A stretch of 60,342 bases of DNA from Acidobacteriota bacterium. Lineage in GTDB: Bacteria; Acidobacteriota; UBA6911; JACQSX01. This document shows, piece by piece, positions 334 through 60,311 of the stretch (within the stretch, counting starts at the first letter, position 1; each line of letters begins with the position of its first letter). A model generated the notes under the pieces. It worked only from the letters and a program-made list of their open reading frames with translations, had not been told where the DNA came from and did no database searches. The stretch covers positions 1 through 60,342 of the forward strand of contig DASXTB010000111.1 of assembly GCA_036505615.1 (NCBI GenBank). The letters run 5' to 3'. Position numbers and translations under genes: made by a program.

Positions 334-341
334 CAGACTGG

Positions 342-413
342 CACCCACACCCGGCACCCGAGACCCGGCACCCGAGACCCGACACCCGAGACCCGAAACC
401 CAAGACTCGAAAC
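342..413. repeat. heptamer array, C-rich arm only (CACCCGA/GACCCGA units)
   Basis: About 10 heptads of the GACACCC family abut the stop of the DASS gene (421-423). No complementary arm occurs inside the window. Confidence 0.85.
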
Positions 414-3263: not shown

Positions 3264-3270
3264 AAAAGAG

Positions 3271-3373
3271 GTCGTAAGTCGCAGGTCGAAAATCGAAAGT
3301 CAGGGGTCGCTCGGCCGAGGGCGAGCAAGGCTCGAAGGGTTGCACTTTCGACTTTCGACCTGCGACTTGCGAG
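3271..3373. repeat. tandem-heptamer hairpin (GTCGNAR)n
   Basis: Arms 3271-3304 and 3341-3373 are about 90 percent complementary; 36-nt spacer. Confidence 0.9.
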
Positions 3374-3394
3374 CTGAGACTAGGACAATCAGCC

Positions 3395-18219: not shown

Positions 18220-18269
18220 TCAAAACACTGTGAAATCCCCCGCTTTCGCCAAAATTTGGGCGCTGAGCT

Positions 18270-18398
18270 CGATCACGTTCACGTTCACGAGCACGTCAAC
18301 GTCCACGACTACGACCAATCGAATCGTGAGCGATTGTGTATTCTTCGTCCGCGTAGGCATGGACGTGCTCGTGAACGTGGTCGTGATCGGCTTTTATT
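18270..18398 (+). terminator. long repeat-hairpin followed by U-tract (putative intrinsic terminator of the ligase gene)
   Basis: Arms 18270-18316 and 18356-18390 are complementary (CACGTT-type hexamer arrays). They are followed directly by CTTTTATT. Confidence 0.45.
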
Positions 18399-24005: not shown

Positions 24006-24294
24006 AGTCACACGTCAGCAAGTCAACAAGTCGCAAGTCAACAGGTTAGCAGGTTACAAGTTAGCAGGTTAGCAGGTTGGTAAGTCGAAGCTCGAAATGA
24101 TCTCCTCAAAGCTGAGTAAGCCCTTGCTTCTCGGCATCGCGAGGAGGAATTCTATCATGCTTAAACCCCGGACTATCAGGCGGAAGTGATGATGTGAAGG
24201 GTTACCTATACTGCCAAGTTTGCCAACTTGCGGAGCTGGAACCTGCCAACCTGCAACCTGTAAACCTATAAACTGGCAAACCCACAAACCTGCA
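24006..24294. repeat. tandem 7-8 nt repeat hairpin (GCAGGTTA / AAGTCAAC units)
   Basis: Left arm 24006-24092 and right arm 24211-24294 (AACCTGC-type units); ~120-nt spacer; imperfect complementarity. Confidence 0.8.
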
Positions 24295-24659: not shown

Positions 24660-24667
24660 AAAGGAAG

Positions 24668-25027
24668 TTTCGGGTTTCGGGTGCCGGGTGTCGAGTGCCG
24701 GGTGTCGGGTGCCGGGTGTCGGGTGTCGGGTTTCGGGTGCCGGGTGTCGGGTGTCGGGTATTGGGTGTCGGGTATTCGGTTTTGGGCTTAACGCCCTTCA
24801 GGTTATCCTAAACTTGGAACCCAACACGTGATTCAGCACCCAATACCTAAGACCCAATACCTAAGACCCAATACCCGACACCCGACACCCGGCACCCGAC
24901 ACCCGGCACCCGAAACCCGACACCCGACACCCGGCACCCGACACCCGACACCCGACACCCGGCACCCGAAACCCGAAACCCGACACCCGACACCCGACAC
25001 CCAACACCCGGCACTCGAGACCAATAC
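24668..25027. repeat. tandem-heptamer hairpin (GGGTGTC/GGGTGCC)n / (GACACCC/GGCACCC)n
   Basis: About 17 heptads at 24668-24786, a ~50-nt spacer, then about 27 complementary heptads at 24837-25027. It fills the whole gap between two minus-strand genes. Confidence 0.95.
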
Positions 25028-35182: not shown

Positions 35183-35345
35183 TTCTCCTCCATGATCCGG
35201 AAATTCTAGCAGATTGGCCGCCAATTCCTCCCGACAGCTTTCAATCAAATCTAATTCCCTGCGGACTTTCGATGTCGCGCCTTCGGCGCTTTATATTTTT
35301 AGGTTAACCCTCACTTCCGCCCTGACGGGCGGGCCTACCCAATGA

Positions 35346-35470
35346 CGCCGCTCCGCGGCTCTCGGGTTTGGACATTTTGGAGAGACGGCCTGAGGGCCGT
35401 CTCCCGCGCAATCTTTCATCGTGCAGGAGACGCCCCACGGGGCGTCTCTCCAGTAGCGCCCGGTCCGCGG
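35346..35470 (-). repeat. family A copy 4 (inverted orientation)
   Basis: The reverse complement matches copies 1-3 along about 105 nt. Confidence 0.9.
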
Positions 35471-35517
35471 CTGCGATGCATGGCAACGTATACGCGCGAC
35501 GCAAGATGTAAATACTC

Positions 35518-35555
35518 CTTGTATATTTATGCATTTTCGTGCATAAATATGCATC
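35518..35555 (+). promoter_or_regulatory. candidate tandem ARG boxes (ArgR/AhrC-type operator) overlapping the argC start region
   Basis: TGTATATTTATGCA (35520-35533) and TGCATAAATATGCA (35540-35553) are 14-bp imperfect palindromes of the TGNAT-W4-ATNCA type. They are 13/14 identical as inverted copies, lie 20 bp centre to centre, and end 5 nt before the argC ATG. Confidence 0.5.
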
Positions 35556-35557
35556 TT

Positions 35558-36667
35558 ATGGTTCACGAACTGCGGGCGGCCGTGATAGGCGCGACCGGCT
35601 ATTCCGGAAGGGAACTAGTGCGATGGCTGCAACAACATCCTGTGGCGAAGCCCGTCTTGCTCACCGGTTCCAGGAAAGCTTTGCCGGAGTTGCGCCGCTT
35701 TGTCTGCTCTCTTCCGGCCGATGTGTTTGTCCCGTTTCGGTACGGCGAGAATTTCCTTGAGGAGTTGCTGGATGTCGTCGCCCTCAGGAAGGTGGGCGTG
35801 GTGTTTCTGGCCACTGAGATTGAAAGTGCCGTGGGATTGGCACCCGAGCTCCTGCAGCAGGATGTGGTGGTGATCGATCTCAGTGCCGGCTTTCGTATAA
35901 AAAACGAGAAGCTCTACCGCGAATGGTATTCGCTGGTGCATCCGTGTCCCGAACTCCTGGAGCGAGCCGTCTATGGCCTGTCGGAATACCATCGGGAAGC
36001 AATCACCGCCGCCTCGCTGATTGCAAATCCGGGGTGTTACCCTACATCGGTTCTGCTGGCGTTGTTGCCGGCGCTCGAATTCATCGACTGGGAAGCGCCA
36101 GTGATTTGCGACAGCAAGTCCGGCCTGACCGGCGCGGGCCGGAACGCCGATTATATATTCGCCGAAATCAACGAAAACTGTCTGGCGTACAAACTGGGAA
36201 ATCATCGCCATATCCCGGAAATGCTTCAGGGCCTGGGCAAACCCGTGGGAGATGGAATTCCGTTCGTGTTCGCGCCGCATCTGGTTCCGATGAATCGGGG
36301 AATCCTCAGCACTTGTTATTTCCGCGCAAAAGTCGGCGTAAGCGAAGCCGGTTTGCGCCGGCAATATGAAGAGAAATACAAAGGGTCTCCCTTCGTCACG
36401 TTGCTGGCGCCGGGTGTGTTGCCCCAGGTTCAAATGGTGGCACATACCAATCGTTGTGAAATGGCGTTGTTTGTCCATGGCGATTCGCGCATGATGACGG
36501 TGGTTTCGGCTATCGACAACTTGGTAAAGGGAGCCGCCGGTCAGGCGATACAGAATATGAATATAAGGTTTGGGCTGGACGAGGCGGCCGGACTCACGGG
36601 AACGGCACTCGGTGGCCGGCAAGAGGGAGAAGGCAGAAAGCAGAAGGCAGAAAGCAGACGGCAGTAG
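35558..36667 (+). CDS. argC: N-acetyl-gamma-glutamyl-phosphate reductase
   Basis: [14 protein letters not shown], active-site [24 protein letters not shown] 35558; ORF-track codons upstream are REP-derived. The last ~15 codons and the stop lie inside a tandem-repeat array. Confidence 0.9.
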
Positions 36668-37025
36668 GAAGAAGGCAGGAGCCAGGAGGCAGGAGGCAGG
36701 AAGCAGGAGGCAGGAGGCAGAAGGCAGGAAGCAGGAGGCAGGAAGCAGGGTGCAGAAGGCAGAAGGCAGAAGGCCAGAGGGAGAAGGGAGAAGGCAGGCG
36801 CTAGAGATACTAAGTAGGATGCAATGGCCGGAACGCATAGTGGAAAGTGGCAGACAGGAACCGGAAAGCAAACTGCAAGATGTAACGCCCACAAACAGCT
36901 TCCTGCCTCCTGCTTCGTGCCTCCCGCCTTCTGCCTCCCGCCTCCTGTTTCCTGCCTCCTGCTTTCTGCCTCCTGCTTCCTGCCTCCTGCCTTCTGCCTC
37001 CTGCCTTCCGCTTTCTGCCTTCTCT
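36621..37025. repeat. tandem-heptamer hairpin (GGCAGGA/GGCAGAA/AGCAGGA)n / (TCCTGCC/TTCTGCC)n
   Basis: Left arm 36621-36800 (about 25 heptads), 96-nt spacer, right arm 36897-37025 (about 18 heptads). The argC stop (36665-36667) lies inside the left arm. The argB ATG is 11 nt after the right arm. Confidence 0.95.
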
Positions 37026-37035
37026 TACAAAAAAG

Positions 37036-37824
37036 ATGAGACTAGTTATTAAATTAGGCGGTAGCCTCCTGACAGAGATTTCCCGGCGCAGACCTCTTCT
37101 AGAACAGTTAATGCGCGTTCATAACCAGGGACATCGATGCCTCCTGGTTCATGGAGGTGGCAAGCTACTCACCTCTTACCTTGAAAAGGCCGGGATATCC
37201 TCGCAGTTTATTCACGGGCTGCGCGTCACGGATGCGCCGACGCGCGACGCCGCACTGATGGTAATGGGCGGCCTGCTCAACAAACAACTGGTGGTGGAAA
37301 TCCAGAACCTGGGCGGGCGGGCACTGGGAGTTTGCGGCGATGCAGGTCTGATCACCGCGCGCAAGGCAGAGTCCGAGGCGTACGGCGGAGCAGATCTCGG
37401 GTACGTGGGCGAAGTGGAACACGTCGATGGCCGGCTGCTGGCGCAGCTGCACGCGCTCGGTCTTATTGTGGTAATGGCCAGCTTGGCGCCGGATGCGCGG
37501 GGCGAGTTTTACAACATCAACGCCGATCTGCTGGCCGCTTCCTGCGCCGCGGCCCTGCAGGCGGACCGGTTGATTTTCCTGACCGACGTCGATGGAGTAC
37601 TCGATGCCGGCGGCAATCGCCTCAACAATCTCTCCAGAGATCAAGTCGACAGCCTGGTCGCGCAGGGAGCTGTCGGCGGTGGTATGCTTCCGAAGCTGAA
37701 GTCTTGTTTGATGGCCCTGGAAAAAGGGGTACAGTGCGTACGCATCGTGCCGGGTTATGGCGAGGGTAGTCTGTTGAGGGCGCTGGAGCCCAAGTTAGAT
37801 TCGCGAGGAACCGAAATTCGATGA
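37036..37824 (+). CDS. argB: acetylglutamate kinase
   Basis: Amino-acid-kinase fold blocks VIKLGGS, VHGGG, NINAD, GGGMLPKL. Confidence 0.9.
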   Translation: MRLVIKLGGSLLTEISRRRPLLEQLMRVHNQGHRCLLVHGGGKLLTSYLEKAGISSQFIHGLRVTDAPTRDAALMVMGGLLNKQLVVEIQNLGGRALGVCGDAGLITARKAESEAYGGADLGYVGEVEHVDGRLLAQLHALGLIVVMASLAPDARGEFYNINADLLAASCAAALQADRLIFLTDVDGVLDAGGNRLNNLSRDQVDSLVAQGAVGGGMLPKLKSCLMALEKGVQCVRIVPGYGEGSLLRALEPKLDSRGTEIR

Positions 37825-39536
37825 CCAGTAATTTTTCTTCCCAGCAGCTCGAGGATAAGTTCTATCTGCCGGTCTTCAAAAAAGCACCCTTTGAACCGGT
37901 GCGCGGTGAAGGCGTATATCTGTACGAAGAGAGCGGCAAACAATACCTCGATTTTCTGGCGGGCATCGCAGTCAACGCTCTCGGATATAACCATCCTGAG
38001 CTGACCCGCGCCATCCAGGACCAGTCAACCCGCGTACTGCATGTAAGTAATTTGTTCTATCACCCTTATGCCGGTCCGCTGGCGCGCAAACTGGCGAGAA
38101 TGTCCGGATTGCGGCGTGCCTTCTTTACCAACAGCGGGACGGAAGCGGTGGAAGGCGCCATCAAGATAGCCCGCGCGCACTCAAGAGGTGACAAGGACAA
38201 AATCAAGTTTGTGGCGCTGGAAAACTCCTTTCATGGCAGAACTGCGGGTGCTCTTTCGTTGACTCATGGGGAGAAGTATCGGAAACCTTTCGAGCCTCTA
38301 TTGCCGGGTATTCAGTTCGTTCCCCCAAATGACGTCGATGCGCTGAATAAGGCCATCGATGAAGACACAGCGGCCTTTATCGCCGAACCGATTTTGGGGG
38401 AAGGCGGAATCATTTCGCTGACTCCCGATTATTTGAAAGAGGCCAGTGAACTGTGCCATCGCCACAACGCGCTGATGATCCTGGACGAAATCCAATGCGG
38501 GTTAGGGAGGACCGGATATCCCTTTTACTTTCAGAAATCCGGAATTCTGCCCGATGTCGTTCTGCTGGCCAAGTCCCTCGGGGTAGGACTTCCACTGGGC
38601 GCGATTCTGGTGGGCGAGAAGGCCGAGCGGGCGCTGCAGCCGGGGGATCACGGCACCACGTTTGGCGGAGGCCCGCTGGCTTGCCGGGCGGCGTTGACCT
38701 TTTTAGAAATACTGGAGCGTGACAACCTGATGCTTCATGCCGCGCAGATGGGTGACTACCTGCGGTCCCGTCTTGCCGAGCTTCAACAGGAGTTCCCCAT
38801 CCTGGAGATCCGCGGCGAGGGACTGATGGTGGGTGTGGTCTTGGACTTGGATGTTCCGGCGCTGGTAAGGCAGTTGTTGCAGGACGGGATCGTCACCAAC
38901 TGCACGGCGGGGAACGTGCTTCGATTGCTTCCACCTCTGGTAATTCGCACTGAGCACGTGGATGAGTTTATCTCTGGCCTGCGCAACGCGCTGGAGGCGG
39001 CGCGCAAGAAAACGCCGGCGAACATCGTCTCTGTCGGCGGGCAGGGCGACGTGGTTGTTCGCAAGGCGCGCATGTCCGACGTTCCGGCAATGGAGCATTT
39101 GATCAACGGCTACGCACGGGAGAACGTGATGCTGCCTCGAACACGGACTCAGTTATGCGAAACGCTGCGCGAGTTCGTGGTAGCGGAAGTAGACGGCGAA
39201 TTTGCCGCCTGTGGCGCCTTGCATCTGTATAGCATGAATACGGCGGAACTGCGGTCGCTCGCTGTGTCTGAGAAATTCCTGAAACGGAAACTGGGTGCCA
39301 GGATTGTACACGCGTTGCTGGAAGACGCGGCGGAATACGACTTGGAGCGCGTTTATACCTTCACCCTGGTGCCGGATTTCTTTCGTAAGCTGAATTTCCG
39401 GATGGTACCGCACAGCGCCCTGCCGGAGAAAGTGCTCAGTGAATGCGCCGGCTGCCCCAAGAGAGACCAGTGCAACGAAGTTGCCTTGGTCTACGAGGTA
39501 GGCGTCGAGGCGCGCCGCCGGCATACTGGCATCTAG
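37821..39536 (+). CDS. argD: acetylornithine aminotransferase fused to a C-terminal single-domain N-acetylglutamate-synthase-like GNAT
   Basis: Class-III aminotransferase blocks (SGTEAVEGAIK, DEIQCGLGRTG, LAKSLG) up to about aa 400. They are followed by a ~165-aa GNAT (VVVRKARMSDVPAMEHL...EFVVAE...CGALH...ELRSLAV) resembling short NAGS enzymes. The ATG overlaps the argB stop (ATGA). Confidence 0.85.
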   Translation: MTSNFSSQQLEDKFYLPVFKKAPFEPVRGEGVYLYEESGKQYLDFLAGIAVNALGYNHPELTRAIQDQSTRVLHVSNLFYHPYAGPLARKLARMSGLRRAFFTNSGTEAVEGAIKIARAHSRGDKDKIKFVALENSFHGRTAGALSLTHGEKYRKPFEPLLPGIQFVPPNDVDALNKAIDEDTAAFIAEPILGEGGIISLTPDYLKEASELCHRHNALMILDEIQCGLGRTGYPFYFQKSGILPDVVLLAKSLGVGLPLGAILVGEKAERALQPGDHGTTFGGGPLACRAALTFLEILERDNLMLHAAQMGDYLRSRLAELQQEFPILEIRGEGLMVGVVLDLDVPALVRQLLQDGIVTNCTAGNVLRLLPPLVIRTEHVDEFISGLRNALEAARKKTPANIVSVGGQGDVVVRKARMSDVPAMEHLINGYARENVMLPRTRTQLCETLREFVVAEVDGEFAACGALHLYSMNTAELRSLAVSEKFLKRKLGARIVHALLEDAAEYDLERVYTFTLVPDFFRKLNFRMVPHSALPEKVLSECAGCPKRDQCNEVALVYEVGVEARRRHTGI

Positions 39537-39626: not shown

Positions 39627-39649
39627 CACTTTGATGCGAGGTGCAGGTG

Positions 39650-39898
39650 ATGACTAGAACCATAACGATGAGGCTGGATGAGGAAACTTATAAGAAGTTG
39701 AAGGCTGCTGCGGCTGCCGAGCGGCGGTCTCTAGCAAATCTCATCGAGACTGCAGCTCTTCGCCATCTGGAAGATAGTGAGTTCGTCGATGATATTGAAA
39801 CGCGTGACATTCTTTCCGATCCTGATCTATTGAAGCGTCTCAGATCCGGACACCTCCAGGCAAGGAAGCGGAAGGGCGCCTTTGTCCGCGGCCTATAG
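39650..39898 (+). CDS. ribbon-helix-helix (CopG-type) antitoxin
   Basis: TITMRLDEETYKKLKAAAAAERRSLANLIETAAL is an RHH pattern. It overlaps the downstream RelE-like ORF by 17 nt. GAGGTG RBS before ATG 39650. Confidence 0.7.
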   Translation: MTRTITMRLDEETYKKLKAAAAAERRSLANLIETAALRHLEDSEFVDDIETRDILSDPDLLKRLRSGHLQARKRKGAFVRGL

Positions 39899-40166
39899 GA
39901 TTTTCGAGACTAAGCAGTTCCAGCGAGACCTGGAGAAATTGGGCCTTTCTGCCAGCCAGCGTATTCGCGAGAAGCTGCGCGGCCACGTTTATCCAGTTTT
40001 GGTCCAGAATCCATGGTTCGGCCCGAATATTAAGCGCCTTCGCCGTCTGGAGCCGTCGACATGGAGATACCGCGTCGGCCAGTGGCGCTTCTTTTACACA
40101 ATCGACGAAGAACAGAACACTGTATTCATGCTTGTTGCCGACAACAGAAGCAGCGCATACCGGTAG
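39882..40166 (+). CDS. RelE/ParE-family type II toxin
   Basis: 94 aa with the pattern ...NPWFGPNIKRL......WRYRVGQWRFFYTIDEE.NTVFMLVADNRSSAY, typical of the RelE/ParE fold. TTG start. Confidence 0.75.
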   Translation: MSAAYRIFETKQFQRDLEKLGLSASQRIREKLRGHVYPVLVQNPWFGPNIKRLRRLEPSTWRYRVGQWRFFYTIDEEQNTVFMLVADNRSSAYR

Positions 40167-40201: not shown

Positions 40202-41590
40202 GTGAACAGTTCTGTGTCTCTACCTCCTTGGAGAAATTGCCCCGGCGGCATCTGCGCGGCTCGAGGCTTCCTGGCCGCCGCTGAGCGCGCGGGTCTCAAG
40301 AAAGCCGGCCTCGATCTGACTATCATTGTCTCTGACCGGCCGGCCAGCGCCGCTGCCTGCTTTACGCGCAACCGCTGCGCGGCGGCGCCCGTCACGGTGA
40401 GCCGTGAACATTTGAAAAAAAACAAAGGCCGCGCTCGGGCGATTCTCGCCAATTCGGGCTGTGCCAATGCAGCCACGGGAGAACGGGGCCTGCAGGATAC
40501 CCGCTCCACCGTCGATGCGCTGGCAAGGAGCCTGGACCTGCCCCCATCCTCTATTTTGGTCTGCTCTACCGGGGTTATCGGTCTGCCGCTGCAGGCCGAC
40601 AGAATCATCGCAAAGCTTCCGGTCTGTGTCAGTCGCCTCAGCCGCAAACAGGCGAGGCGAGCGGCGCAGGCCATCGCGACAACAGATAGCGTCCTTAAGA
40701 TTGAATCTATCGCGTTTCAAGCCGCCAGCGGAGCGGTACGCGTTGGCGGCATTGCAAAGGGCGCCGGGATGATCCATCCGGACATGGCCACAATGTTGGC
40801 GTTCATCACAACCGACGCGGCGATATCACCGGCAATGCTGCAGCGGTGTCTGACCTGGTGCGTGGAGCGGTCGTTTAACTGCATCACCGTCGACGGCGAT
40901 ACTTCGACTAATGATACCGTCATCTTGCTTGCCAACGGCGCCTCTGGGGTTGAGGTTATGGAGGAACCAGCCAGCGGGCGGATAGACTCGCGGACACGGA
41001 GACACGGAGACACGGGGGCCATCGTCGCATCGCCGCGTCCCCGCGTCCCCGCGTCGCGACACTCCCTGTCGCCGCGTTCCCTTATCCCCGCGTCGAAGCC
41101 TGCCGTGTCGTCTCACCTCCAAGACCAGGTATGCGAGGACGACTTCCGCGCTGCTCTGCTGGAAGTCTGTCAGAGGCTGGCGCGAAAGATCGCGTGGGAC
41201 GGCGAAGGAGCGACCCATCAACTGGAAATCCGGGTTACCGGCGCTAGGTCTTTCGAGCAGGCAAGGAATGTCGGCCGTTCCATCGGCCGTTCGAATCTGG
41301 TCAAGACAGCCATTTACGGGCATGATCCCAATTGGGGACGGGTATTGAGCGCCGCGGGCGCGTCCGGTGAGCGCATTGACAGTTCGCGTGTCCAACTGGC
41401 GATCGATGGCCAAGTCGTAGCCGAAGGAGGAGTCTTAAAATACCTGCCTGATTCGGTTTTCACTTCGGTGTGGAAGAAGAAAAAAATTGAAATTGCGATC
41501 GATCTTGGCCTGCGTGACGCCAACGCCACCTGTTGGAGCTGCGACCTGTCGCACCAGTACGTCGATATCAACGCGAGCTACCGAACATGA
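40202..41590 (+). CDS. argJ: bifunctional glutamate N-acetyltransferase / ornithine acetyltransferase
   Basis: GMIHPDMATMLAFITTDA (self-cleavage site), DGDTSTND, DGEGATH, CDLSHQYVDINASYRT. Contains a repeat-derived in-frame insertion (see findings). Confidence 0.9.
   Translation: MNSSVSLPPWRNCPGGICAARGFLAAAERAGLKKAGLDLTIIVSDRPASAAACFTRNRCAAAPVTVSREHLKKNKGRARAILANSGCANAATGERGLQDTRSTVDALARSLDLPPSSILVCSTGVIGLPLQADRIIAKLPVCVSRLSRKQARRAAQAIATTDSVLKIESIAFQAASGAVRVGGIAKGAGMIHPDMATMLAFITTDAAISPAMLQRCLTWCVERSFNCITVDGDTSTNDTVILLANGASGVEVMEEPASGRIDSRTRRHGDTGAIVASPRPRVPASRHSLSPRSLIPASKPAVSSHLQDQVCEDDFRAALLEVCQRLARKIAWDGEGATHQLEIRVTGARSFEQARNVGRSIGRSNLVKTAIYGHDPNWGRVLSAAGASGERIDSSRVQLAIDGQVVAEGGVLKYLPDSVFTSVWKKKKIEIAIDLGLRDANATCWSCDLSHQYVDINASYRT
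40985..41116. repeat. 8-nt repeat arrays (GACACGGA)3 ... (CCCGCGTC)3 inside the argJ ORF
   Basis: CGGACACGGAGACACGGAGACACGGGGG at 40990-41018 and CGCGTCCCCGCGTCCCCGCGTCGCGAC at 41034-41060, plus CCCCGCGTC and CCGTGTCGTCTC further on. Partially complementary arms. Confidence 0.8.
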
Positions 41591-45623: not shown

Positions 45624-45629
45624 ATTGAG

Positions 45630-46249
45630 TGTCAGTTGTTGGGTGTCGGGTATCGGGTGTCAGGTGACGGGTGTTGGGTGTTGGGTGTCGGGTGTCGGGT
45701 GTCGGGTCGAGTGTCGGGTGACGGGTATCGGGTGTCGGGTGACGGGTATCGGGTGTTGGGTGTCGGGTGTCGGGTATCGGGTGTCAGGTATCGGGTGTCG
45801 GGTGACAGGTCTCGGGTGTCAGGTATCGGGTGTCGGGTGTCAGGTAAGGGGTGACGGGTGTCAGGTGTCAGGTTTCGGGTGTCGGATGCATCAGTCACCG
45901 AAAAGACTCATATCAACAGATTGAAAGATGTTTGCCCAACACCCGTCACCCGATACCCGATACCCGTCACCCAACACCCGTCACCCGATACCCGTCACCC
46001 GACACCCGATACCCGTCACCCGTCACCCAACACCCGTCACCCGTCACCCAACACCCAACACCCAACACCCGTCACCCGATACCCGTCACCCGTCACCCGA
46101 CACCCGATACCCGTCACCCGTCACCCGTCACCCAACACCCGTCACCCGTCACCCAACACCCAACACCCAACACCCAACACCCAACACCCAACACCCGTCA
46201 CCCAACACCCAACACCCAACACCCAACACCTGACACCCAACACCCAACG
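45630..46249. repeat. giant tandem-heptamer hairpin (GGGTGTC family), about 36 + 45 units
   Basis: G-rich arm 45630-45885, ~50-nt spacer, C-rich arm 45935-46248. It occupies the entire ctaB-DUF420 intergenic gap. Confidence 0.95.
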
Positions 46250-47595: not shown

Positions 47596-48588
47596 TTAAG
47601 TAGTCTGTTCCCAATTTCCATGGTCCCCAATTTCCATCATTCGGGTCCATTTGCGGCCAATGTTCGCCCCTGGGTATCGCCTGTGAATTCTCAAAGCGAG
47701 CAACAGTGCAGAGGCCAAAATGAGCGCGCCCAAAGCAACGTGAGCCGTAGAGCTCCAGACGTACTCGAAGATCGGCTGAGGAGCGCGCAAATTCTCCTTC
47801 TTGATAAAGAAGGTTGCCGTCCCCAAGAGTGCCTGGCCCACCACCAGACCCAGCAGAAAGAGCGAATGCCGATTCAGCTCGCCGGGGTAAAACCTTACCG
47901 TTATTACTGCAAGCCGCGCGGCCAACAGTACAACCACGGCAGCCCCGAGGATGTGCGAACCGATCCCCAAAGCATTATGCCGGTAGCCCGCGCCCAGTAT
48001 CAGCTGCGCGTAAACGGCAGCAACCAGGCAAAGGCTGATCCCACGAAGGCTGGGACGGTCTTCGGGATCCGTCTCAGACTGCTGGCCGGCCCACTTGTCG
48101 CCCGTTACCACCGCCGTAGAGATCGTTAGGCAAAAGAATGCCTGAGCCAGCGAAGCGTGGGCCATGGAAACTGCGGGCGGCAGGAAGTACAGTACGGTAA
48201 TTCCGCCCAGCAGCCCCTGTAGGATCACCGTAGCCATCGCCGTCCATCCGAGTCTGCGTACCCATCTGCGGGGCTCCTTCACTGAAATCCAGACTGCCAG
48301 TATGACGGTGAGCATTCCCACGAAAGCAGCAACCATGCGATGGCTATGCTCGTAGAGAACCCCGCCGGGCATCTCAGGCAACCATTTACCGAAGGAAAGC
48401 GGCCAATCTGGAACTGCAAGTCCGGCATCGTTGCTGGTCACAAGGCCCCCGGCGATGATCAAAAAGAAAGTGCAGACCGCGGTGAAGCAGGCGAAGCGGT
48501 GTAACGATTTCGGATTGCGGATTTCGGATTGCGGATTATTCGATTTCGGATTGCGGATTTCGGATTGCGGATTAAGTCGTGAAGGCAT
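47596..48588 (-). CDS. ctaA: haem A synthase (COX15/CtaA family)
   Basis: Eight-TM COX15/CtaA-type ORF (YEHSHRMVAAFVG, GAGYRHNALG). ATG 48588 (or TTG 48603). The first ~30 codons are the repeat arm (NPQSEIRNPKS twice). Confidence 0.85.
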   Translation of the reverse strand: MPSRLNPQSEIRNPKSNNPQSEIRNPKSLHRFACFTAVCTFFLIIAGGLVTSNDAGLAVPDWPLSFGKWLPEMPGGVLYEHSHRMVAAFVGMLTVILAVWISVKEPRRWVRRLGWTAMATVILQGLLGGITVLYFLPPAVSMAHASLAQAFFCLTISTAVVTGDKWAGQQSETDPEDRPSLRGISLCLVAAVYAQLILGAGYRHNALGIGSHILGAAVVVLLAARLAVITVRFYPGELNRHSLFLLGLVVGQALLGTATFFIKKENLRAPQPIFEYVWSSTAHVALGALILASALLLALRIHRRYPGANIGRKWTRMMEIGDHGNWEQTT

Positions 48589-48743
48589 TTGATTTGCTCT
48601 CAATTTCCATCTCCACTCGAACCGAACTTAAAGGAAGCTAGGCTAAAGTCCACAATCGATCAATCCGAAATCCGAAATCCGCAATCCGCAATTGGGCTAT
48701 CCGCAATCCGAAATCCGCAATTGGGCAATCCGCAATCCGAAAT
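48505..48743. repeat. tandem 7-8 nt repeat hairpin (CGGATTG/CGGATTT)n / (AATCCGC/AATCCGA)n
   Basis: Left arm 48505-48574 (inside the ctaA 5' end), ~80-nt spacer, right arm 48657-48743 (ends 4 nt before the cupredoxin stop). Confidence 0.9.
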
Positions 48744-49643: not shown

Positions 49644-49982
49644 GAGTTGCCGGTTTCTGGTCCCCAGTTGCCAGTTCCTAGTTGCCAGTCGCCTGTAATT
49701 TTGAAATCGGAACTACGGATCCATGATCTCACTGCAGAGGCGCAGAACCTGTAAAAGAATCAGAACCGCGCCCGTCAGGGCGCGTGCGGAGAATCTTTGT
49801 CAATTCCCGGCGCCTGCAAAACGCTTTGAACTGCCAGCAACTTAGAAAGTTTACGGCGAATCTTGTTACATTCTCCGCGCGCGCCCTGACGGGCGCGGTT
49901 CTGATTCTTGCTGTGGTTCTGCGGTGAATCGTACTACCGATTGCAAAGTTACAGGCAACTAGGAACTGGAAACTGGCAACTG
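49644..49982. repeat. nested double palindrome
   Basis: Outer arms 49644-49703 and 49944-49982 (CAGTTGC/CAGTTCC units). Inner inverted repeat 49742-49803 / 49862-49922 is about 60 nt and highly similar; each copy carries its own GCGCCCGTCAGGGCGC hairpin. Confidence 0.9.
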
Positions 49983-55164: not shown

Positions 55165-55276
55165 TGCAGGTTGCAAAGTTAGCAAGTTAGCAGGTTCGCA
55201 AGTTAACAACTTGGCACGTTAGGGGTCTCTGGCTCGCGGACCTGCTAACTTGTTAACCTGCAAACCTGCAAACAAG
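55165..55276. repeat. tandem 7-8 nt repeat hairpin (GCAGGTT/GCAAGTT units)
   Basis: Arms 55165-55215 and 55240-55276, located between the Rieske stop and the cytochrome b start. Confidence 0.85.
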
Positions 55277-56530: not shown

Positions 56531-56741
56531 GTCCGTTGTCCGTTGTCAGGTCGCAGGTAGCAAGTCGCAGGTCGAAAGTCGCAAGTCGCAGGTCGAAAGT
56601 CGCAGGTCGAAAGTCGATTGGCTGGCGTTTGAGTGGGAACCCACGAGTGAAATTTGAAAATTGGATTTAGAGCTTCCCACTTTCGACTTTCGACTTTAGA
56701 CCTTCGACTTTCGACCTTCGACTTTCGACCTTCGACTTTCA
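56531..56741. repeat. tandem-heptamer hairpin (GTCGCAG/GTCGAAA)n / (CTTTCGA/CCTTCGA)n
   Basis: Left arm 56531-56616 (starts with GTCCGTT x2), ~60-nt spacer, right arm 56678-56741, ending 12 nt before the stop of the CMD-like gene. Confidence 0.9.
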
Positions 56742-56752
56742 GCCTAGGATCA

Positions 56753-59976: not shown

Positions 59977-59985
59977 CTCGTTGTA

Positions 59986-60074
59986 GCAGACTAACTCCGA
60001 GCAGACTAACTCCGGAGCAGACTAACTCCGCGTCTCACGTTTGAGCGCGAGCAGACTAACTCCGGACTAACTCC
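59986..60074 (+). repeat. short direct repeats (GCAGACTAACTCCG x4, ACTCCGC.TCTCA)
   Basis: GCAGACTAACTCCG occurs at 59986, 60001, 60017 and 60051. Confidence 0.85.
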
Positions 60075-60311
60075 GCATCTCAACTCCGCATCTCACGTTT
60101 GAGCAGGTAATTTGCCATTTTGACGCTGACTTACCGCTCTGTAGCGGTCGTTTTCGATCTCCCTTTCCCAACAAATTTTACAGTCCCGATCACGCATCTC
60201 AACTCCGCATCTCACGTTTGAGCAGTTAATTTGCCATTTTGACGCTGACTTACCGCTCTGAAGCGGTCGTTTTCGATCTCCCTTTCCCAACAAATTTTAC
60301 AGTCCCGATCA
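60075..60311 (+). repeat. two tandem copies of a 118-nt unit (period 119)
   Basis: 60075-60192 and 60194-60311 differ at two positions. Each copy contains an ACCGCTCTGNAGCGGT hairpin. Confidence 0.95.

Follow-up and report, generated by a model that had tools for sequence, protein, structure and literature searches.

The window (the whole 60,342-nt stretch of Acidobacteriota DNA that was analysed) contains the arg genes argC, argB, argD-GNAT and argJ. The last of these is an intact ORF for a 462-aa ornithine acetyltransferase / glutamate N-acetyltransferase, and an array of octanucleotide units lies in frame inside it (Table 1). The argJ ORF matched PF01960 of Pfam (E 4.9e-139, 463.7 bits), the insert breaking the match into two stretches, and a sequence search matched its product to the ArgJ/OAT chains of the PDB (best E 3.5e-63). 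The OAT fold was predicted by AF2 (mean pLDDT 87, pTM 0.87); comparison of this model with 1vz8_B by Foldseek gave an E-value of 6.5e-40 and a target-normalised TM of 0.90, and the model superposes on the OAT structures 1vz8 and 1vz6. The beta chains in the PDB start at the residue aligned with Thr197, and in an alignment of 70 ArgJ sequences T197 and 60 further invariant columns were kept in the window ArgJ.

Table 1. Positions of argJ, of its nucleophile and of the parts of the octamer module (window coordinates)
Feature	Position	Strand	Composition and basis
argJ	40202-41590	+	462 aa intact ORF; ornithine acetyltransferase / glutamate N-acetyltransferase
Thr197 codon ACA, ATML motif; autoproteolysis and catalytic nucleophile	40790-40792	+	invariant in 2 alignments; 1vra_B beta chain aligned from query residue 197
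Variable loop, residues 250-314, LANGASG strand to FRAALLE helix	40949-41143	+	65 aa
Outer 11-mer GGTTATGGAGG	40954-40964	+	82% complementary to CCTCCAAGACC; flanks the whole module
Inserted segment, codons 255-308, EPASGRIDSRTRRHGDTGAIVASPRPRVPASRHSLSPRSLIPASKPAVSSHLQD	~40964-41125, limits +/- ~10 nt	+	gap vs 1vz6; L165/L166 alignment; translation
Left arm, purine-rich	40985-41016	+	4 octamers: GACTCGCG, GACACGGA, GACACGGA, GACACGGG
Spacer (loop) between arms	41017-41029	+	GGCCATCGTCGCA, 13 nt
Right arm A, pyrimidine-rich	41030-41061	+	TCGCCGCG, TCCCCGCG, TCCCCGCG, TCGCGACA
Right arm B	41069-41100	+	TCGCCGCG, TTCCCTTA, TCCCCGCG, TCGAAGCC
Distal piece TGCCGTGTCGTCTC	41101-41114	+	complementary to GAGACACGG of left arm; closes outer stem in predicted fold
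Outer 11-mer CCTCCAAGACC	41116-41126	+	partner of 40954-40964

The octamer module and the loop that holds it

The first-pass annotation had claimed an in-frame insertion of about 50 aa, with 94 aa between two conserved blocks that are separated by some 40 aa in ArgJ proteins of the Bacillus type. The DGDTSTND-to-DGEG spacing was indeed 94 aa in the window, and 148 diverse ArgJ genes, drawn from genomes and metagenomes, had 35-48 aa (mode 41); it was 87-94 aa in the insert-bearing genes and 54 aa in the relative L004. The loop from LANGASG to FRAALLE measures 65 aa in the window and 11-12 aa in the closest insertion-free relatives, and query residues 250-308 were unmatched in PDB 1vz6, where chain residue 233 directly precedes 234. 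The net insertion is ~53 aa (159 nt), slightly larger than had been claimed, and the segment is absent from the unrelated ArgJ proteins encoded by the 148 genes, the insertion being unique to the clade. The limits given at first, 40985-41116, hold for the repeat core, whereas the insert as a whole is slightly wider.

Within those limits the sequence reads as had been claimed, with 8-nt arrays in partly complementary arms. The low-complexity peptide SRTRRHGDTGAIVASPRPRVPASRHSLSPRSLIPAS is the in-frame translation of this part of the ORF, and HGDTGAIVASPR is an example of a peptide spanning the insert. The units are of the GACACGGA type in the left arm and of the CCGCGTC type in the right arms, and their register is held over four units per arm; TRF reported a period of 8 for the left arm (2.9 copies, 100% match, 40993-41015). 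Right arm A pairs with the left arm save for one A.C mismatch per unit, and right arm B repeats arm A directly, 39 nt further on, in degenerate form (72% identity). When the 60-kb window was searched with GACACGGAGACACGG, allowing up to 2 mismatches, 2 matches were obtained vs 0.17 expected, and CCCCGCGTCCCCGCGTC gave 2 vs 0.02 expected, all of them inside the insert only. The octamer is stop-free in every phase of both strands and, since 8 and 3 are coprime, all of its frames give the same 8-aa periodic peptide. A stop-free unit with a frame-independent peptide means that selection on ArgJ need act only against gains and losses of a length not divisible by 3.

The insert is rich in Arg, Ser, Pro, Gly, Asp and Thr. 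In the AF2 model, residues ~254-303 had a pLDDT of 35-47 and no secondary structure, with values above 90 in the rest of the protein, and the insert site is predicted at the tip of a beta-hairpin (strand 251-253 to strand 309-311). Across bacteria, ArgJ varies in length only at this site. The location in a loop, which had been anticipated, thus agrees with the model, where the insert looks like a disordered loop that leaves the Ntn-hydrolase fold and the catalytic residues unaffected.

Orthologous inserts, array turnover and selection

Inserts made of the same octamer units were found at the same site and in the same codon phase in two relatives, whose ArgJ cores are 86% and 74% identical to that of the window and whose copy numbers differ; two further relatives retain shorter remnants and two others carry no insert. 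The loop lengths over the clade were 65, 64, 58, 35 (P0005), 25, 12 and 11 aa, so that the presence/absence and length polymorphism suggested for close relatives does exist. The frame is kept at loop lengths of 195, 192, 174 and 75 nt, no stops are present, and all insert lengths are multiples of 3. The orthologous insert was recovered from independent assemblies, namely L164 (JGI), L001 (NCBI MAG), L002 (Logan) and L003 (JGI). One search limitation applies to the peptide: with the 51-aa insert peptide as query, a word-indexed search missed even the near-identical P0001 (probably through low-complexity masking), while phmmer recovered P0001 and found P0122. The 3949-aa repetitive adhesin-like protein P0121, which matched the insert with an E-value of 1.5e-5, was discarded as a chance low-complexity match to its ATGRPRLTAS repeats. 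An ArgJ scan of metagenome contigs returned only relatives of ~38-45% identity, and that of genome contigs returned one clade member, L004.

The units have turned over within these inserts. At matching codon phase the left-arm unit is GACGCGGC in L001 and GACACGGR in L003, and the difference is concerted, the left arm being all GACACGG in the window and L003 and all GACGCGG in L001. Unit counts are 4+4+4 in the window, ~8+9 in L001 and 4+4+4 plus a 72-nt duplication in L003; this duplication is direct and in frame, as is one of 39 nt in the window. Short head-to-tail units that vary in copy number, and change in concert, from one relative to another mark the insert as an SSR. The arms of L001 are 47 nt long and 81% complementary, and even a non-repeat irregularity (GGATAC/GTATC) is mirrored in them. 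The insertion-free L166 carries GACGTGCGCCGCGGG at the insert site, a possible seed for the array. In the NJ tree the insertion-free P0004 fell inside the insert-bearing group, which requires either a clean loss or a wrong topology.

The dN/dS ratio of the ArgJ core was 0.13 (vs L001) and that of the insert ~0.8, the latter from an alignment made uncertain by repeat turnover. The window and L164 are 99.88% identical, with 6 SNPs over 5015 nt; two of the six, 41061 A/T in right arm A and 41078 T/C in right arm B, lie within the insert, which is 162 nt long (binomial P = 0.014), and each is non-synonymous. On these sequence comparisons the core is under strong purifying selection and the insert near neutral at the protein level. 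The core ratio and the gene context are consistent with a functional ArgJ; with the residues invariant in 70 ArgJ sequences, Thr197 included, also kept, the gene does not qualify as a pseudogene by sequence criteria, an objection that the first-pass annotation had itself raised.

Distribution of the arrays and origin of the module

At least 11 intergenic inverted-array loci, each an array, a spacer and an inverted array with arms of up to ~180 nt, were found in the window. Intergenic paired arrays of 7-8-nt units in a like style are present in L001, L003 and L004, and the array between argC and argB is orthologous in the window and L001, its unit being kept. When spacers were compared over 13 hairpin loci in the window, no common core emerged, only 8-nt chance matches, and the octamer unit of the insert was not found elsewhere in the 60 kb. 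Accordingly, the proposal that the insert is one of the intergenic hairpin elements stands for its anatomy, which is common to at least 11 hairpins of the window, but not for its unit, nor is there a spacer core to unite them. This indicates that the insert is not a copy of a local mobile-element family and that its tie to the local hairpins is one of architecture only.

Outside the window, arm-spacer-arm hairpins of GACRCGGR / YCCGCGTC occur at many sites in other contigs, several per contig, and the contigs with the octamer unit range from 44% to 70% GC. GACRCGGR accounts for 96 of the 140 octamer arrays in the unit-bearing contigs, while the heptamer units there are very diverse. Two hairpin copies in L199 share the spacer GAACGCGCYTCTG, and an irregular third unit of the CCCTT type recurs in the right arm in window/L164, L167, L183 and L203. 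Inspection by eye of the flanks of 22 hairpin copies revealed no obvious direct duplications or shared termini. In variants of the type GGGGACGC, found elsewhere, a G-quadruplex is conceivable; the G-runs of the window units are only 2 long.

Arrays of the insert's octamer were also found in frame in unrelated proteins: an M10 peptidase (twice), a phage portal protein, a capsid protein, SWIM-type phage proteins and another phage protein. Where checked, these arrays always lay outside or between Pfam domains, and in the M10 peptidase and the SWIM-type/other phage proteins the peptide is nearly that of the insert (TRRHGDTG...ASPRPRV). The description of the argJ case as rare is therefore probably not justified. 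A crude GC3 test for location inside a coding ORF gave 30/89, a rough figure, since the test misses the window's own argJ. In one phage capsid family an array of this octamer fills a hypervariable linker whose overall length matches that in homologues, which shows that such an array can form inside an ORF with no need for an insertion. The triplicate (GACRCGGN)3 was present in 68 viral contigs; this count was rejected as proof of a specific family, because permuted control units gave 11 and 54 and abundance alone is hence not diagnostic.

The explanation that we favour, with a probability of about 0.65, is that the argJ segment is a translated palindromic octanucleotide SSR module in a tolerated loop, the product of a mutational habit of the lineage, and that it grew in place. 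The module consists of purine-rich (GACRCGGR)n, a short spacer and pyrimidine-rich (YCCGCGTC)n, presumably translated straight through and probably neutral for the enzyme. At least three species-level Acidobacteriota lineages probably inherited it from a common ancestor. Its arrays would later have turned over by concerted unit changes, by the 39- and 72-nt in-frame duplications and, in L001, by arm-to-arm homogenisation, with decay or loss in other relatives and near-neutral drift of the peptide. The same lineage-wide habit would fill intergenic DNA with paired inverted 7-8-nt arrays, most likely by replication slippage and intrastrand template switching, and in argJ it may have nucleated and expanded in place from a GC-rich loop coding for Arg and Gly.

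One question is whether the module was instead imported as a block, as a ready-made palindromic octamer element (RPE-like or of the MITE/REP type) arriving by transposition, recombination or template switching and surviving through a chance in-frame, stop-free fit. We regard this as rather unlikely, although much of the distribution above could be read in its favour: the widespread hairpins with the L199 pair that shares a spacer, the dominance of one octamer beside diverse heptamers, and the near-identical in-frame peptides in unrelated proteins. In particular, the occurrence of the unit and of its irregular CCCTT variant in unrelated genes, and in contigs of such different GC content, could reflect the spread of a ready-made element. 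The likeness of the peptides, however, follows automatically from the identity of the units, as all frames of an 8-mer encode one peptide, and the arrays formed by permuted control units in viral contigs suggest that octamer arrays arise readily. The spacers vary by locus without a conserved core, the flanks lack obvious duplications or shared termini, and there is no second copy within 60 kb of the genome. Import also gains from the fact that stepwise 8-nt growth in an essential ORF passes through frameshift intermediates, so that growth in place needs three-unit jumps, same-length conversion or compensated events. The inference that block insertion is required is weakened by the phage capsid, whose array replaces a linker of equal length and adds no block; same-length conversion is thus possible.

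Exaptation, which the first-pass annotation had offered beside tolerance, would give the loop a role in interaction, regulation or localisation, or give the nucleic acid one as a hairpin (antisense RNA, pause or processing site, Arg-codon sensor). The insert is kept in three lineages with cores 74-86% identical, but it is absent or reduced in 4 of the 7 clade members, and the peptides of the three lineages align only at coinciding repeat units. The enzyme belongs to the arginine pathway, and arginine makes up 12% of its insert vs 8% of the core, with as many as 13 residues of 64 in L001; this richness is nevertheless a direct consequence of the CGN-rich unit, and added Arg codons would be counter-productive for arginine biosynthesis under starvation. 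The antisense strand of the window insert folds at -73.5 kcal/mol (z -2.9, none of 200 shuffles as good), whereas folding was unremarkable on the window mRNA strand (z -1.3) and on both L003 strands. Nothing matched when the whole window was scanned against Rfam at gathering thresholds, so that the hairpin is not explained by any known RNA family. A strong arm asymmetry was seen in 14 hairpin copies, where one arm has 24 GACACGG vs 29 GACGCGG and the other 1 CCGTGTC vs 46 CCGCGTC (Fisher P = 2.5e-7). Such one-sided G/A variation means that one strand keeps G.U pairing, and neutral drift alone does not explain it. On the other side stand the near-neutral ratio of the insert (~0.8, against 0.13 for the core), its share of the SNPs between nearly identical assemblies and its lack in a close relative, and we consider exaptation improbable. 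Far less credible still is the idea that the insert belongs to no mature protein or live gene, whether as an assembly artefact, as part of a pseudogene or as a bypassed or removed element (hop, intein, intron). Non-triplet repeats are odd in coding DNA and repeats can mislead assemblers, yet the insert is present in four assemblies that are independent and differ in source, the frame is held without stops at every loop length listed above, and the core is under strong purifying selection. Intein and intron features are absent, Rfam gave no match, and bypassed elements need not hold the frame, as every version here does. This reading is close to refuted.

Beyond the tolerated module in argJ, a doubtful but broader conjecture is that GACRCGGR / YCCGCGTC marks an undescribed and widespread set of 'coding-compatible' hairpins in soil bacteria (Acidobacteriota and others) and their phages. 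These would be seeded, by themselves or by a specific mechanism, at sites upstream of genes as well as in the linkers and loops of proteins, among them core enzymes such as ArgJ and the virion proteins portal and capsid. If so, the one-sided G/A variation of the arms would reflect selection on one hairpin strand (RNA or ssDNA), the modules would be functional or selfish entities instead of debris left by mutation, and in argJ one could follow the birth, homogenisation and decay of a module along a dated series of orthologues.

Significance and comparison with known systems

Coding DNA is normally cleared of tandem repeats whose unit is not a triplet. In this core biosynthetic enzyme two inverted 8-nt arrays have stayed in frame across species, a drifting passenger in a constrained host. 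The case can serve as a natural experiment on the unstructured sequence that an Ntn-hydrolase loop tolerates, on the reading-frame filter that acts on repeat turnover, and on the birth of low-complexity protein segments from processes at the DNA level. It also draws attention to a lineage with a genome saturated by long palindromic arrays of 7-8-nt units, themselves of unexplained origin and tolerance. In practical terms, such inserts split domain matches and can mislead the annotation or alignment of housekeeping markers in metagenomes.

Several known systems resemble the argJ module in part. Programmed bypass (T4 gene 60, mitochondrial byps) involves a frame-breaking or stop-bearing gap, whereas all argJ versions are stop-free and multiples of 3 nt. 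In heterocystous cyanobacteria, STRR heptamer arrays reportedly lie inside the RNase P RNA gene, as Vioque is said to have described in 1997. The likeness is that of a lineage-wide repeat at a permissive peripheral site of an essential gene; that host, however, is an RNA gene with no reading frame to keep, while argJ encodes a protein. MITEs and REP/BIME elements are described as small, hairpin-forming, non-coding and mostly intergenic, with occasional in-frame ORF fusions (PMC10969869). The argJ module is unlike a MITE in that the flanks of the 22 copies appeared free of duplications and shared termini by eye and that a conserved core and near-identical copies are lacking.

A closer parallel is offered by long SSRs. 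Units of 5-11 nt, heptamers especially, are over-represented in some bacterial genomes, among them those of Burkholderia, Xanthomonas and Nostoc (Mrazek et al. 2007, cited by PMC4679880 and PMC4692102), and some long SSRs are noted to occur as inverted pairs (PMC4692102). Burkholderia stagnalis has arrays of the insert's own unit, and Gemmatirosa has octamer pairs in inverted orientation. The likeness extends to head-to-tail 7-8-nt arrays, mostly intergenic and near gene ends, that vary in copy number and unit between relatives. Published long SSRs are overwhelmingly intergenic, however, while the argJ pair lies inside a coding gene, and our literature search found no account of inverted non-triplet arrays in frame in a core biosynthetic enzyme across species.

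The Rickettsia palindromic elements (RPEs) come nearest in their relation to the host gene. These are 100-150 nt of palindromic DNA inserted in frame in housekeeping and other genes and translated there as an additional peptide, found also between genes, and inherited (PMC10969869). An RPE belongs to a consensus family of ~150 bp with a conserved peptide. The argJ module shares only an 8-nt unit with its counterparts: both the unit and the arm-spacer-arm plan come back in many contigs and in several proteins, but with varying spacers and copy numbers, the window holds no second copy, and the arms turn over by unit. The hosts also differ, being Acidobacteriota and their phages and not Rickettsia, and an octamer array is unlike the RPE consensus sequences as described. 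As in RPEs, the DNA can form hairpins, strongly in L001 (z -4.75 and -5.2), in degenerate form in the window (z -1.3 for the mRNA and -2.9 for the antisense strand) and not significantly in L003. Like an RPE, too, the module is in frame and stop-free, keeps the downstream frame and occupies a site compatible with the fold. The argJ insert thus looks like a variant of the protein-coding palindromes, with no new function evident, and free-living soil bacteria, probably with their phages, would harbour an equivalent of what has so far been a curiosity of Rickettsia.

The argJ gene and its insert

The ORF encoding ArgJ (462 aa) matched PF01960 in two stretches in a Pfam search (E 4.9e-139). All 61 columns that are invariant in 70 aligned ArgJ sequences, including the nucleophile Thr197, are kept in this protein, and the dN/dS of its core was 0.13 against the relative L001 (0.05-0.11 against other relatives, more distant pairs in which synonymous sites are saturated). 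The AlphaFold2 model built on the 70-sequence alignment had a mean pLDDT of 87, with values above 90 nearly everywhere outside the insert, and its superposition on OAT structures gave a target-normalised TM of 0.90. The gene order is argC, argB, argD-GNAT, a putative toxin-antitoxin pair, and argJ. We take argJ to be a live gene; the core dN/dS and the invariant columns speak against the pseudogene that the first-pass annotation had named as a possible objection.

The spacing between the DGDTSTND and DGEG blocks is 94 aa, as that annotation had counted, against 35-48 aa (mode 41) in 148 ArgJ genes, a diverse set from genome and metagenome collections; this indicates that the extra segment is not conserved in unrelated ArgJ proteins. 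The repeat-built, in-frame insertion was confirmed with a net size of ~53 aa (~50 aa had been proposed), and the peptide first read from it is the true translation of the ORF. By sequence comparison, ArgJ residues 250-308 are unmatched in solved ArgJ/OAT structures, and in 1vz6 chain residue 233 is directly followed by 234. Residues ~254-303 were modelled with pLDDT 35-47 and no secondary structure, and, since short strands (251-253 and 309-311) flank this stretch, the insert is predicted to lie at the tip of a beta-hairpin. At the DNA level, it consists of facing octamer arrays (see table) and contains a 39-nt direct duplication. Its two array motifs had 2 matches each in the 60-kb window, against 0.17 and 0.02 expected by shuffling.

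Upstream, ArgD, a class-III aminotransferase, carries a fused GNAT acetyltransferase domain at its C-terminus (571 aa in total), a fusion kept in L001 and in the relative L164. The GNAT domain might provide N-acetylglutamate synthase activity alongside ArgJ. The two small overlapping ORFs that follow were read as a putative antitoxin (85 aa, ribbon-helix-helix-like N-terminus) and a putative RelE/ParE-like toxin (94 aa); they are present in L164, and in L001 no gene was called in the corresponding gap of 614 nt.

Variation of the loop among relatives

The window ArgJ belongs to a clade of seven proteins with 62-100% identity, all others being at or below 47%. Only one member comes from a named genome (L004, an Acidobacteriota MAG), and six of the seven were compared at the DNA level. 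Presence/absence and length polymorphism, which the first-pass annotation had suggested looking for, were both found: counted between LANGASG and FRAALLE, the loop has 65 aa in the window and L164, 64 in L001, 58 in L003, 35 in P0005, 25 in L004, and 12 and 11 in the insertion-free L165 and L166. The three long versions use an identical octamer family and share both the insertion site and the codon phase, which indicates that they are orthologous; their peptides read R-R-H-G-D-T-G, R-R-R-G-D-A-G and G-R-H-G-D-T-G, each followed by A-S-P-R-x-R-V. The presence of the insert in four independent assemblies indicates that it is not an artefact.

The L001 insert (~8 left and 9 right units) forms a long hairpin whose 47-nt arms are 81% complementary, with a non-repeat irregularity mirrored as well, and its fold z-scores were -4.75 and -5.2. 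In L003 the right arm is duplicated as a 72-nt direct, in-frame copy. All left-arm units are GACACGG in the window and L003, and all are GACGCGG in L001, a concerted change typical of array turnover. In an NJ tree of the ArgJ core, the insertion-free P0004 falls among insert-bearing genes on short internal branches, implying either loss of the insert or an unresolved topology.

The insert showed a dN/dS of ~0.8, a value subject to its uncertain alignment. Over 5015 nt, window and L164 share 99.88% identity; of the six differences between them, two fall within the 162-nt insert (P = 0.014) and both alter the peptide. With the predicted disorder, these results give no sign of the exaptation that had been envisaged. 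We conclude that argJ carries the insert as a loop that is free of constraint and probably disordered, and that the insert is probably neutral.

Repeat arrays in the window and in other genomes

Arrays of 7-nt units, and some of 8-nt units, number in the dozens in the window. At least 11 intergenic loci hold an array facing its own inverted complement across a 5-150-nt spacer, and such pairs (units of 6-8 nt) occupy most intergenic regions; the largest has arms of up to ~180 nt and 37-44 copies. Units vary from locus to locus, although TCGGGTG recurs at three and GCTGAGA at two. L001, L003 and L004 show the same paired-array style, and the argC-argB array of window and L001 has the common unit AGGCAGA. 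The suggestion that the insert is one of the intergenic hairpin elements holds for the array-spacer-inverted-array anatomy, but its octamer unit has no other occurrence in the window, no shared core was found in the spacers of the window hairpins, and by eye the copies had no obviously matching flanks, whether as direct duplications or as shared termini. The window hairpins thus share an architecture and are not copies of one mobile sequence. No description of such paired arrays in Acidobacteriota was found in the literature searched.

The reading frame of argC ends within the adjacent (AGGCAGA)n array, which contains its stop codon. Beyond the canonical ...FGLDEAAGL, the ArgC tail has 25 aa in the window and 44 aa in L001, mostly array-encoded, and is a second case of translated array DNA in the same operon.

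Coordinates of argJ, its insert and related features
Feature	Location	Details
argJ	40202-41590 (+)	
Insert, left arm	40985-41016	GACTCGCG, GACACGGA, GACACGGA, GACACGGG
Insert, spacer		13 nt
Insert, right arm A	41030-41061	TCGCCGCG, TCCCCGCG, TCCCCGCG, TCGCGACA
Insert, right arm B	41069-41100	degenerate second copy
Insert, distal piece	41101-41114	complement of left arm
Paired inverted arrays, window	340-413, 1972-2069, 2762-2926, 3269-3375, 18262-18391, 24006-24294, 24667-25022, 36624-37024, 45629-46245, 48505-48743, 49664-49982, 55165-55273, 56531-56745	largest: 45629-46245
argC and its array, window	35342-36667; 36624-36797	
argC and its array, L001	1-1284; 1177-1540	
argD-GNAT	37821-39536	
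Putative toxin-antitoxin pair	39641-40166	
Repeats at window edge	60074-60311; 59985-60095	119-nt unit x2, 98% match; preceded by 11-16-nt repeats
P0122 gene, L167	78-2249	octamer arrays 1613-1654, 1925-2011
In-frame (GACRCGGR)3-5 arrays, viral contigs	L186 4135-4157; L222 4006-4028; L228 8259-8281; L177 2092-2114; L215 2481-2503, 10393-10423; L233 1100-1347; L183 13177-13256; L203 11658-11737 (reverse strand)	also L212, L202, L231
Single-arm arrays 5' of ATG (examples)	L181 2392-2430; L187 1015-1045; L175 4577-4599; L186 3701 (reverse strand)	
Burkholderia stagnalis YJ-2 (L297)	NZ_CP156686.1 ~2486659-2487896	composite array
Gemmatirosa kalamazoonensis plasmid 1 (L298)	~214390-215627	inverted pair

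An index-free phmmer search of 1.84 billion representative proteins with the insert peptide matched the near-identical ArgJ P0001 and a matrixin-like, M10-type peptidase, P0122, from a contig of 70% GC. The C-terminal part of P0122 carries GRGDTETRGHGDTGS...SASPRPLVPAS twice, encoded by (GACRCGGR)5, a spacer and then CCGCGTC units; both modules appear to lie within a ~100-aa segmental duplication (ELLDRLFARSA / EWLDRLFDPSA). When viral contigs were scanned for the pattern of three consecutive units, 68 stretches were obtained (GC 44-70%), several contigs having multiple sites, and the full arm-spacer-arm form was represented by 22 distinct sequences, including the argJ copies and both orientations of some palindromes. 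Wherever a host ORF was identifiable, the array was in frame and between or outside Pfam domains. Among the hosts, a Mu-type portal-MuF fusion was joined by one more portal-MuF protein; HK97-type capsid proteins had the array on the N-terminal side of the capsid domain; and the others were a protein whose capsid domain is C-terminal, SWIM-type proteins and one further phage protein. The encoded peptides included DAGTRGRGDA and TRRHGDTG. Two cautions apply to this distribution. As 8 and 3 are coprime, all frames of an octamer array give the same 8-aa period, so that insert-like peptides in unrelated proteins arise automatically. Permuted control units formed arrays too, in 11 viral contigs for one unit and 54 for the other. 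Even so, in the viral contigs with octamer arrays, 96 of 140 such arrays were of the GACRCGGR family, and heptamer arrays comprised dozens of different units.

Many single-arm (GACGCGGR)n arrays in the viral contigs L168-L235 stop a few to tens of bases 5' of an ATG and, as the unit contains GGAG, look like reiterated Shine-Dalgarno-like sequences. Related octamers occur in cultured B. stagnalis YJ-2, in a long composite array drifting through GGAGACGC, GGAGGCAC, GCAGACAC and GGAGACAC, and in the G. kalamazoonensis plasmid, where (GGCGCGGA)4 faces (TTCTCCGCG)n across ~100 nt, resembling the window pairs. The octamer strings were not found in the literature searched, and searches on heptamer and octamer repeats gave intergenic simple sequence repeat (SSR) studies alone.

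Origin of the insert and comparison with known systems

The favoured account is array turnover. The lineage would be strongly prone to forming arrays of 7-8-nt units, homogenising them and converting them into palindromes, which replication slippage and intrastrand template switching would fit; heptamer-scale slippage favoured by the polymerase is a proposal from the literature (as cited in PMC4679880 and PMC4692102). In argJ, this process would have acted on the one indel-tolerant loop. The octamer unit lacks stops in all phases on both strands, so an array of it is always open, and purifying selection on ArgJ would let a variant through only if its total length is divisible by three, a filter that the loops of 195, 192, 174 and 75 nt and the duplications of 39 and 72 nt fit. 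Within this account the module may have nucleated and grown in place, as suggested by GACGTGCGCCGCGGG at the insert site of the insertion-free L166 and by a phage capsid family whose array lies in a hypervariable linker as long as that of array-free homologues. It may instead have been imported as a block: the octamer unit, like some irregular units, is found again in unrelated genes, and single-unit steps within an ORF would cause frameshifts.

The two arms do not vary alike. In 14 hairpin copies (window 40985-41061, L001, L003, L167, L171, L183, L191, L192, L199, L202, L203, L212 and L231), the purine-rich arm had 24 GACACGG against 29 GACGCGG and the other arm 46 CCGCGTC against 1 CCGTGTC (Fisher P = 2.5e-7, the copies being not all independent). 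Mismatches are consequently of the A.C type on one strand and of the G.U type on the other, with wobble pairing on one strand only; the 73-nt core of the window insert folded at -34.6 kcal/mol on the mRNA strand and -50.5 kcal/mol on the antisense strand. A mutation bias specific to one strand, or selection acting on a single strand, could underlie this asymmetry, which keeps a functional or selfish reading of the hairpins alive.

The argJ insert is real, well delimited and informative on evolution, and it exposes a broader phenomenon of octamer and heptamer hairpins that is of higher interest than argJ itself. Among known phenomena, the Rickettsia palindromic elements (RPEs), in-frame translated palindromes in housekeeping genes (PMC10969869), come closest; among known sequence classes, the long-unit SSRs of SSR-rich bacteria do. 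The insert behaves like an RPE and has the construction of a long-unit SSR. It has neither the conserved full-length consensus of an RPE nor the terminal repeats with target duplications of a MITE.
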